IMG/VR virus record: IMGVR_UViG_3300037827_000551
Coordinates: 1-64,000 of that record
Source: a virus
DNA: 64,000 nucleotides
Direction: 5' to 3' (one strand)
A model generated the notes under the pieces. That model saw nothing but the letters and a program-made list of their open reading frames with translations. It did not search any database and was not told the DNA's origin. The position numbers and the translations under genes were made by a program. Shown one piece after another: positions 2,478 to 3,263 of this stretch; position 1 is the stretch's first letter, and each line of letters opens with the position of its first letter.

Positions 2478-2497
2478 AATAGAAAGGAGGTGATTTC

Positions 2498-3263
2498 GTG
2501 AAGTTTGGCAGTCTCTTTGCTGGAATCGGCGGCTTTTGATTTGGGACTAGAGAAAGCGGGGATGACCTGTGAGTGGCAAGTCGAAATCGACCCGTTCTGT
2601 CGACGAGTCCTCGAAAAGCATTGGCCCACTGTTCGGCGCCATGAGGACATCCGATCATTTCCCTCCGATGGAGACTGGGGAGTCGATCTCATCTGCGGAG
2701 GATTTCCATGCCAGGACATTAGCCTCGCGGGGAACATGGCGGGAATCCAGGCGGACCGATCCGGACTGTGGAGCGAATACTTCCGAATCGTTAGCGTTTT
2801 ACGACCGCGAGTCATTGTCGTGGAGAACGTATCAGCTCTCCTTTTTAACGGGATTGACCGAGTTTGCGGAGACCTGGCCACGATCGGCTATGACGCGGAA
2901 TGGGAAGTTATTTCGGCGTGCATGTTCGGTGCCCCACATTCACGGGAAAGACTGTTCGTTATTGCCTACCCTTACGAAGTCGGATGGGACGACAAGAGGA
3001 AATATTTTAACGGACGCCATGAATTACCGCCCCGATGCGACGCATGGAAAGCCTCGCCGAGTCAGAGCGGATGGAAGTTCGTTCAGCGCTGGATTATCCA
3101 GGCTATGGAAACTGGCCTCGGGTTTATCGCTCCCCGCGAACGCAGCGGAATGGCTGATGGGATACCCAGCCAACTGGACCGCATTGGAGCCCTCGGAAAC
3201 GCCGTCGTCCCCCAGATCGCCGAGTGGATCGGACGAATGATCCTGGAATCGGAGCAATCCTAA
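2498..3263 (+). CDS. dcm: DNA (cytosine-5) methyltransferase, large (alpha) polypeptide, with a +1 frameshift at 2534-2539
   Basis: AAAGGAGGTGA RBS, then GTG 2498 gives MKFGSLFAGIGGF (motif I) followed by TGA. The +1 frame continues DLGLE, GGFPCQDIS (IV), ENV (VI), PHSRERLF (VIII) and LGNAVVP (X). Confidence 0.9.
2569..3240 (+). CDS. Overlapping beta polypeptide of the split C5 methyltransferase (motif IX carrier, M.EcoHK31I-like); exact start uncertain
   Basis: Stop-free 223-codon alternative frame entirely inside dcm. Contains TWPRSAMTRNG, LLPTLTKSD and AEWLMGYPANWT (motif IX-like), while the main frame lacks motif IX. Confidence 0.7.
   Translation: MSGKSKSTRSVDESSKSIGPLFGAMRTSDHFPPMETGESISSAEDFHARTLASRGTWRESRRTDPDCGANTSESLAFYDRESLSWRTYQLSFLTGLTEFAETWPRSAMTRNGKLFRRACSVPHIHGKDCSLLPTLTKSDGTTRGNILTDAMNYRPDATHGKPRRVRADGSSFSAGLSRLWKLASGLSLPANAAEWLMGYPANWTALEPSETPSSPRSPSGSDE

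Follow-up and report, generated by a model that had tools for sequence, protein, structure and literature searches.

A phage C5 methyltransferase gene with a nested second reading frame and a recurrent one-base insertion at motif I

We analyzed a phage C5 DNA methyltransferase gene at positions 2483–3263 of a 64,000-nucleotide stretch of viral DNA (hereafter the window; positions 1 to 64,000 of IMG/VR record IMGVR_UViG_3300037827_000551, a linear virus record of 83.5 kb estimated to be ~78% complete) and found its conserved motifs distributed over three reading frames. One of these frames, lying within the gene for the catalytic chain (alpha), is a real nested gene (beta) under selection throughout the methylase family. 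Specific to the window is a single extra T, by which one base spreads the gene over all three frames. Judged from the sampled relatives, the T insertion is not ancestral but sporadic and recurrent at the motif I site: the same insertion was found in ~20 separate lineages and at neither of two matched control sites. With moderate confidence, we regard the window as carrying a sporadic allele of recent evolutionary origin that turns the methylase off or down and whose leakiness makes it tolerable.

Reading frames of the locus

The features of the locus, all on the plus strand, are the following.

2483–2493, +: strong ribosome-binding site AAAGGAGGTGA, 4 nt upstream of GTG 2498, read directly
2498–2539, +: frame A leader MKFGSLFAGIGGF of 13 codons with a GTG start, containing motif I (FxGxG) and ending at a TGA stop
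2534–2537, +: TTTT run with the extra T, part of the putative shifty stop UUU-UGA-U
2538–3263, +: frame B body, the alpha catalytic chain, with motifs II–VIII, a variable linker, and motif X; TAA at 3261–3263
2697–2717, +: motif IV, GGFPCQD with the catalytic Cys, frame B; invariant columns in alignment A2
2823–2831, +: motif VI, ENV, frame B; invariant in A2
2940–2951, +: motif VIII, SRER, frame B; invariant in A2
3195–3212, +: motif X, GNAVVP, frame B; invariant in A2
2569–3240, +: frame C, open for 223 codons, the nested beta gene
2752–3237, +: conserved part of beta, ..SWRTYQ..FAETWPRSAMTRNG..LLPTLTKSD.. (recognition domain) plus motif IX, from alignment A1 of 44 beta frames
3148–3180, +: motif IX, EWLMGYPANWT, frame C, overlapping ..SGMADGIPSQLD.. 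of alpha

The sequences PCQ, ENV, RxR, and GNxV are the usual signatures of motifs IV, VI, VIII, and X. A first-pass annotation, made from the sequence alone, had described the ribosome-binding site, the GTG start, and a motif I ending at TTT-TGA (2534–2539), motifs II–VIII and X in the +1 frame up to 3263, and a motif IX-like sequence in a third frame at 2569–3240. All of these were read at the positions given: frame A ends with the codons TTT (2534–2536) and TGA (2537–2539), frame B contains GGFPCQD, ENV, SRER, and GNAVVP, and EWLMGYPANWT stands in the third frame and recurs in nearly all of the 72 homologs introduced below. An open reading frame listing gives frame B as 2505–3263, with the true body beginning at GAT 2538.

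Frame B matched Pfam family PF00145 with an E value of 2.1e-37 (129.7 bits, cut-off 22) over profile positions 12–165 of 324. Motifs IV, VI, VIII, and X of the family are present in this frame. Motif I is not in one chain with motifs IV–VIII, as TGA 2537–2539 cuts it off in frame A, and motif IX is not in the same chain either, frame B reading SGMADGIPSQLD at 3148–3180. A search of 5.8 billion proteins returned 7,977 relatives of frame B among 8,000 scored candidates, the best of them ~250 residues long, 50–60% identical, and covering 96% of the frame B product. The homologs read M.FGSLFAGIGGFDLG[LF]ERAGM.. without a break, with the frame A leader peptide joined in frame to the body, and track frame B throughout the VIII–X region. 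As FGSLFAGIGGFDLG is read in one frame in the homologs, the T run of the window at 2534–2537 is one base too long. With TTTT taken as a single step, the locus gives a 254-residue protein collinear with the family; the database gene call for the locus is a 147-residue fragment (P0001) starting VENVSALL.

Selection on the nested beta frame

We fetched 80 related viral loci, of which 72 showed a single tblastn segment, and analyzed 71 of these, leaving out the truncated L079, together with the frame B body of the window. In nearly all of the 72 genes, LNPxWVEWLMGFPxGWT stands in the +1 frame immediately ahead of motif X, and the longest open stretch of this frame has a median of 221.5 codons versus 68 codons for the +2 frame. 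We compared the stop codons with those in shuffles that swap synonymous codons within each gene and keep both the alpha protein and its codon usage. In alignment columns 90–208, one stop was seen in the +1 frame versus 210.6 expected, and 71 of the 72 genes (all but L072) had no +1 stop over ~120 codons, versus 5.2 expected. The same shuffles predicted 464 stops for the +2 frame, where 461 were seen. The first-pass annotation had proposed a nested beta gene with motif IX, resembling that of M.EcoHK31I, and had named third-frame stops in close homologs among the findings that would refute it; the single stop and the 71 stop-free homologs lend the proposal strong support.

The variability of the alpha codons agrees in showing a second constraint. 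At third positions it falls from ~1.65 bits to 0.8–1.3 bits over the segment ENV..GYDAEW, and position 3 is the most variable across motifs I–VIII. Under motif IX the most variable position is position 1, which identifies the +1 frame as the constrained one; in the linker between motifs VIII and X, variability is ~1.7–1.8 bits at all three codon positions. The consensus of beta is LAxYDPxTSSWRTSQxCLxExWxxFSETWPRSGMMRNGxAYxL..GLLPTPxAxD..PTP..LNPxxVEWLMGFPxGWT, and a profile built from the 44 frames of A1 matched 43,398 representative proteins at E ≤ 1e-3 and 5,250 at E ≤ 1e-30, most of them called "hypothetical protein." The beta frame was also found in 53 records of cultured phages. Among the 15 listed, the overlying gene was annotated as a methyltransferase in 14 cases and as a hypothetical protein in one; in Sulfitobacter phage phiGT1, the match is the +1 frame inside a single coding sequence called "cytosine DNA methylase."

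Comparisons of beta with known domains and structures gave no matches of note. Among the 44 beta members, none matched PF00145 or any other Pfam family, and the profile matched sequences in the Protein Data Bank (PDB) only at chance level (glycolipid-transfer proteins, E ~0.03). A search of the ESM Atlas returned viral "hypothetical protein" clusters only. The fold model of beta was of low quality (mean predicted local distance difference test score 65.3, predicted template modeling score 0.31), and a Foldseek search of the PDB gave no match at E ≤ 0.001, a negative that carries no information given so poor a model. A predicted complex of alpha (2538–3260, A2) and beta (A1) had a score of 0.14 (mark 0.32), which speaks neither for nor against binding.

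Under the proposed model, the locus would encode a single C5 DNA methyltransferase of the phage, divided between two overlapping frames, and the third of the frames in use would come from the one-base insertion. Alpha (frame B) resembles the large catalytic domain with its Rossmann fold, carrying motifs I–VIII and then a linker of low conservation and the helix of motif X; beta (frame C, +1, nested) looks like the small DNA-recognition domain and would supply target recognition and motif IX. Alpha and beta most likely form a single enzyme together, by analogy with M.EcoHK31I and its two polypeptides. M.EcoHK31I of Escherichia coli HK31 (target YGGCCR) is described as a two-polypeptide C5 methyltransferase with beta encoded wholly within the alpha gene in another frame; its alpha holds motifs I–VIII, X, and the recognition domain, its beta holds motif IX, the chains must associate, and the first 42 residues of beta are dispensable (PMC2836561). 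The phage family resembles this system in that its beta is nested in another frame of alpha and kept open by selection, in that motif IX comes from beta and motifs I–VIII and X from alpha, and in that the N-terminal part of beta, dispensable in M.EcoHK31I, is poorly conserved in the phages. The two differ in the placement of the recognition domain, which is in alpha in M.EcoHK31I as described there, whereas in the phage family the blocks SSWRTSQ, WPRSGMMRNG, and LLPTPxAxD sit in beta and the alpha linker between motifs VIII and X is unconserved. The phage family is also very large and phage-borne, and the two are likened by layout rather than by sequence.

In the literature searched, with subscription journals outside the coverage, we found no description of a large phage family with the two-frame layout or of a frameshift at motif I, and the layout has one published precedent, M.EcoHK31I. 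M.AquI is likewise a C5 methyltransferase built from two chains, the break falling after motif VIII so that IX and X share a chain, but its two genes are adjacent and do not overlap along their length. If the model holds for the family, a single annotated protein probably stands for two in thousands of phage methylase genes, and the DNA specificity of such methylases probably sits in the unannotated beta chain.

Two other explanations for the third frame were weighed. It is extremely improbable that the motif is a by-product of the conserved codons of alpha and that no beta protein is made: the W in EWLMG is indeed forced by Met-Ala codons of alpha (our own derivation) and the beta profile lacks a Pfam family (0 of 44 members) or a solved-structure match, but with the alpha protein and codon usage kept constant, the shuffles produce 211 stops against the single one observed, and the first codon position of alpha is wobble-like under motif IX. 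Also very improbable is a single polypeptide made by two programmed shifts, from the alpha frame by +1 into the recognition domain and motif IX and by –1 back to motif X, with no separate beta. Read in that order, the frames do give the canonical succession of motif VIII, a PTxT recognition domain, motif IX, and motif X in one chain. The conservation of beta begins upstream of motif VIII, however, where SSWRTSQ..WPRSGMMRNG overlaps ENV..GYDAEW of alpha, so that both readings of the same DNA are needed, and none of the 72 homologs analyzed has its alpha frame interrupted in the linker. Moreover, only five residues would lie between WT and GN, and in some homologs beta has a strong internal GGAG with an ATG, or its ATG comes 4 nt behind the start of alpha.

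The sites at which beta may start vary across the family. In 29 of the 72 genes the first beta ATG is at alpha column 40–49, mostly preceded by GAGG-type motifs; 10 genes have it at column 83, where most show a strong GGAG-type motif ahead of it, and in 11 it follows the alpha start by 4 nt. In the window, the sequence suggests either GTG 2569, the first possible start, or ATG 2641, the commonest position in the family.

We also observed other arrangements of the same parts. In a second conserved layout (L082:1501–2433, L083:1501–2394, and L240; proteins P0275, P0281, P0303, and P0304), motifs I–III are in frame with beta (..WPxVPNFxxGIVxLNSLL.. continuing into the recognition domain and motif IX), and motifs IV–X are in the –1 frame with their own ATG ~25–30 codons before PCQ. 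The break in L240 lies between query residues 39 and 49, and no slippery heptamer was seen at the junction of this layout, which may be a different two-chain split (I–III with the recognition domain and IX; IV–VIII with X) or a –1 shift. In a search for a single-chain ancestor, we listed 120 longer relatives of P0198, of which 10 matched PF00145, and classified eight of those 10. None of the eight was a canonical I–X chain with a beta-type domain after motif VIII: seven had motif I or motifs I–IV in frame with beta, and one (P0367) had alpha through GYDAEW joined to the beta frame. In P0168, P0367, and P0122, a part of alpha is joined to beta in a single frame, as motifs I–IV then beta or as alpha through GYDAEW then beta, indicating that further frame changes or deletions occur in the family in metagenome contigs.

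Recurrence of the insertion at motif I

A T run is a typical place for insertion–deletion (indel) errors and the window comes from a metagenome assembly, and the first-pass annotation had listed a one-base assembly indel among its options and proposed checking the TTTT run at 2534–2537. Nine runs hold part of 2300–3400, and we aligned four of them (X1–X4), of which X2 and X3 do not reach the T run. X1, a Logan contig from a root metagenome (1,024 nt, depth 6.1), covers 2300–2729 with two substitutions upstream of the gene and no gaps; X4, a Logan contig from a soil metagenome of another study (214 nt, depth 2.1), covers 2457–2670 with one substitution and no gaps. Independent contigs from two studies thus keep TTTT, this evidence being contigs in which a minority variant would stay hidden. 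In addition, the metagenome contig L349 (1,010 nt) has the same sequence as the window, extra T included. The extra T is real, and it is very unlikely that an assembly or sequencing error conceals an ordinary, intact gene. Near-identical copies of 2300–3400, with zero to two substitutions, were seen in Logan contigs from root, rhizosphere, leaf-litter, and soil metagenomes of four studies, which shows a single phage lineage to be widespread across samples from plants and soil.

At the site of the T run, the homologs have GGN TTY GAY, giving GGF-DLG in one frame, and the shifted form is GGN-TTT-T-GAY. The first-pass annotation had asked whether the extra T is conserved in homologs; it is not, as none of the 80 related viral loci was shifted at the motif I site. 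We then searched with a degenerate pattern for the shifted form (G-I-G-G-F plus one T, then D-L-G). All four matches among other viral contigs were true, the body lying in the +1 frame relative to motif I, and all 26 metagenome contigs matching a longer pattern were also true. Among 185,579 species genomes there were 27 matches, two of them true, a Phycisphaeraceae and a Planctomycetales metagenome-assembled genome (both Planctomycetota); the ribosome-binding site and GTG start of the latter are almost identical to those of the window, and near-identical ones precede the gene of the shifted homolog L325. At 95% identity, 18 shifted lineages were distinguished among 28 assessable sequences, and with a few short ones the overall number is ~20.

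Each of the shifted lineages is nearest to unshifted sequences, and they form no clade. The apparent pair L331 and L337 (75%) is split by the unshifted P0377, which is ~85% identical to L331 (hand count over 114 residues). This scatter among unshifted relatives shows that the insertion had many separate origins. Unshifted sequences are much more frequent, numbering at least 115 viral stretches.

We compared the motif I site with two other Phe codons as controls, classifying all matches by translation. In GGFPCQD, where GGNGGN likewise precedes the Phe codon, the T-insertion pattern gave 18 matches, none of them a true shift; this pattern also matches unshifted genes in which the preceding codon ends in T. 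For the insertion at F-GAPH, which has the same G downstream, none of the 21 matches was true, and the seven that were methylases were all unshifted. Among 160 loci not chosen by a DNA pattern, the substrates available at motif I, GGFPCQD, and F-GAPH stood at 8:26:6. If insertions were spread by substrate, the probability of all four viral cases falling on the motif I site would be ~0.2^4 = 0.002 (our own arithmetic, with the discovery case excluded). Frame changes elsewhere in alpha were found in four of 271 loci, of which L083 and L240 break as in the second layout and L055 and L208 have other changes. One further locus (L118:1490–1560) has a one-base insertion right after the GGF codons, in this case a C (GGC TTT C TCC..), and its leader runs four more codons to a TGA without UUU-UGA. 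The C insertion hints that the motif I spot may itself be mutation-prone.

Proposed consequences of the extra T and surroundings of the gene

In the mechanism that we propose, the extra T after the GGF codons places motif I, needed to bind S-adenosylmethionine, in a 13-codon leader ending in UUU-UGA, and complete alpha would be made only if the ribosome slips by +1 on UUU at the UGA. The sequence of the site suggests such a slippage: tRNA-Phe could re-pair from UUU to UUU in the +1 frame, with GAU read next. The insertion would recur at the motif I spot probably because the shifty stop leaks and some alpha is still made, and an early break leaving beta intact could let such alleles outlast frameshifts elsewhere. 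Among the three sites compared, motif I is the only one where the insertion leaves the beta frame untouched. The excess at motif I could come from a leaky UUU-UGA, from the untouched beta frame, or from a mutational hot spot. The shifted genes are in good condition: the window deviates at one of 36 conserved alpha positions (the unshifted median is one), six of the seven shifted genes tested deviate at zero to two, and in 18 of the 20 metagenome loci with at least 700 nt downstream, no stop interrupts alpha before motif X or within 300 codons.

A known parallel is prfB, encoding release factor 2, where the programmed +1 frameshift site CUU UGA C is preceded, at a distance of 3 nt, by a Shine-Dalgarno-like element. 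The site in the window (UUU UGA U, 2534–2540) is similar in having a P-site tRNA able to re-pair in +1, beside a UGA stop and early in the gene. It differs in having no Shine-Dalgarno-like stimulator at the right spacing, GGAATCGGCGGC abutting UUU and GGAGG or AGGGGG being absent, in not being conserved in diverged homologs (0 of 80), in showing no autoregulatory logic, and in having arisen many times by T insertion. Both UUU UGA and CUU UGA C are listed among +1 slippery sequences (PMC3500957, Table 2).

The main competitor of our reading is that UUU-UGA after motif I is a selected recoding site, which sets a low dose of alpha or the alpha:beta ratio through tRNA-Phe re-pairing UUU to UUU as UGA waits for release factor 2. 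We consider this unlikely, although several findings speak for it. The site fits a shifty stop, as in the table cited, the ribosome-binding site and start are intact, and the same insertion is found in ~20 lineages and at neither control Phe codon. Six of the seven shifted genes tested have also kept their conserved residues. Two pairs of sequences point the same way, L325 and L347, in which eight of 10 differences are at third positions, and L329 and L339, which share the shifted 5′ part and have different open 3′ parts. On the other hand, no clade keeps the shift and all shifted lineages stand beside unshifted relatives (none of the 80 related loci being shifted), a stimulator at the prfB spacing is lacking and GGCGGC abuts UUU, and second lesions are found in L332, L348, and L333. 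That the insertion recurs yet does not last long in evolution, as far as sampled, argues against a classical conserved programmed frameshift. Of the three options that the first-pass annotation had given for the extra T, the off or attenuated allele thus fits best, the assembly indel is rejected by the contigs X1 and X4, and the programmed +1 shift is unsupported by conservation, although the insertion recurs at motif I and not at the two control sites.

A more adventurous idea, to which we give rather little credence, is that UUU-UGA at motif I is a recurrently selected, reversible dimmer of phage cytosine methylation, in which one base would drop the catalytic chain to a +1-slippage trickle and leave the nested recognition chain intact. 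Such a dimmer would let phages lower methylation when it is harmful and then switch back by loss of the T; less methylase might be an advantage, we suggest, where hosts have methylation-dependent restriction. Should the shifty stop prove leaky, the shifted lineages would be a natural series of one-base attenuator alleles, in which bacterial +1 frameshifting at UUU-UGA and the ways phages adjust or lose DNA methylation could be studied at little cost.

Several observations weigh against our reading of the locus as a selected two-chain gene carrying a young off or knock-down allele. For beta, the +1 frame of the window itself is stop-free by chance in 14% of shuffles, and no Shine-Dalgarno sequence precedes ATG 2641, where most homologs have GAGG-type motifs; on its own, the window cannot show that beta is still in use. 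For the insertion, the excess at motif I rests on two control sites only (four cases versus none and none), with an unshifted total of at least 115. The decay in shifted genes includes second one-base indels in L332 and L348, in comparison with otherwise identical relatives, and a stop after 58 codons in L333. The shifted L325 and L347, which have diverged flanks, differ at 10 bases in the gene, eight of them at alpha third positions, which hints at continued selection after the shift and favors the programmed alternative; recombination with intact relatives or an independent insertion could produce the same pattern. Finally, beyond the near-identical copies the closest relatives are at ~60–67%, and the age of the insertion and later selection are not measurable from the sample.

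The pair L329 and L339 shows a further peculiarity. In L329, the beta frame is broken by a stop and followed by an open reading frame with a putative HNH-like signature (..HHIDGDRTNN..N..EH..IH); L339 shares the identical 5′ part, extra T included, but its 3′ part is another one and is intact. The pattern resembles an exchange of modules, which a homing endonuclease may have driven.

Around the methylase, a scan of 1500–4500 found no promoter-like sites and three terminator-like sites, no more than the 2.9 expected by chance, one of them at 2517–2532 just 5′ of the T run. A ParB-like gene (HTH_ParB, E = 1e-7) lies upstream at 586–1551, and a second DNA methyltransferase gene (PF01555, N6_N4_Mtase, E = 8e-21) lies 4.6 kb downstream at 7849–8868; the phage therefore has at least two DNA methylases.

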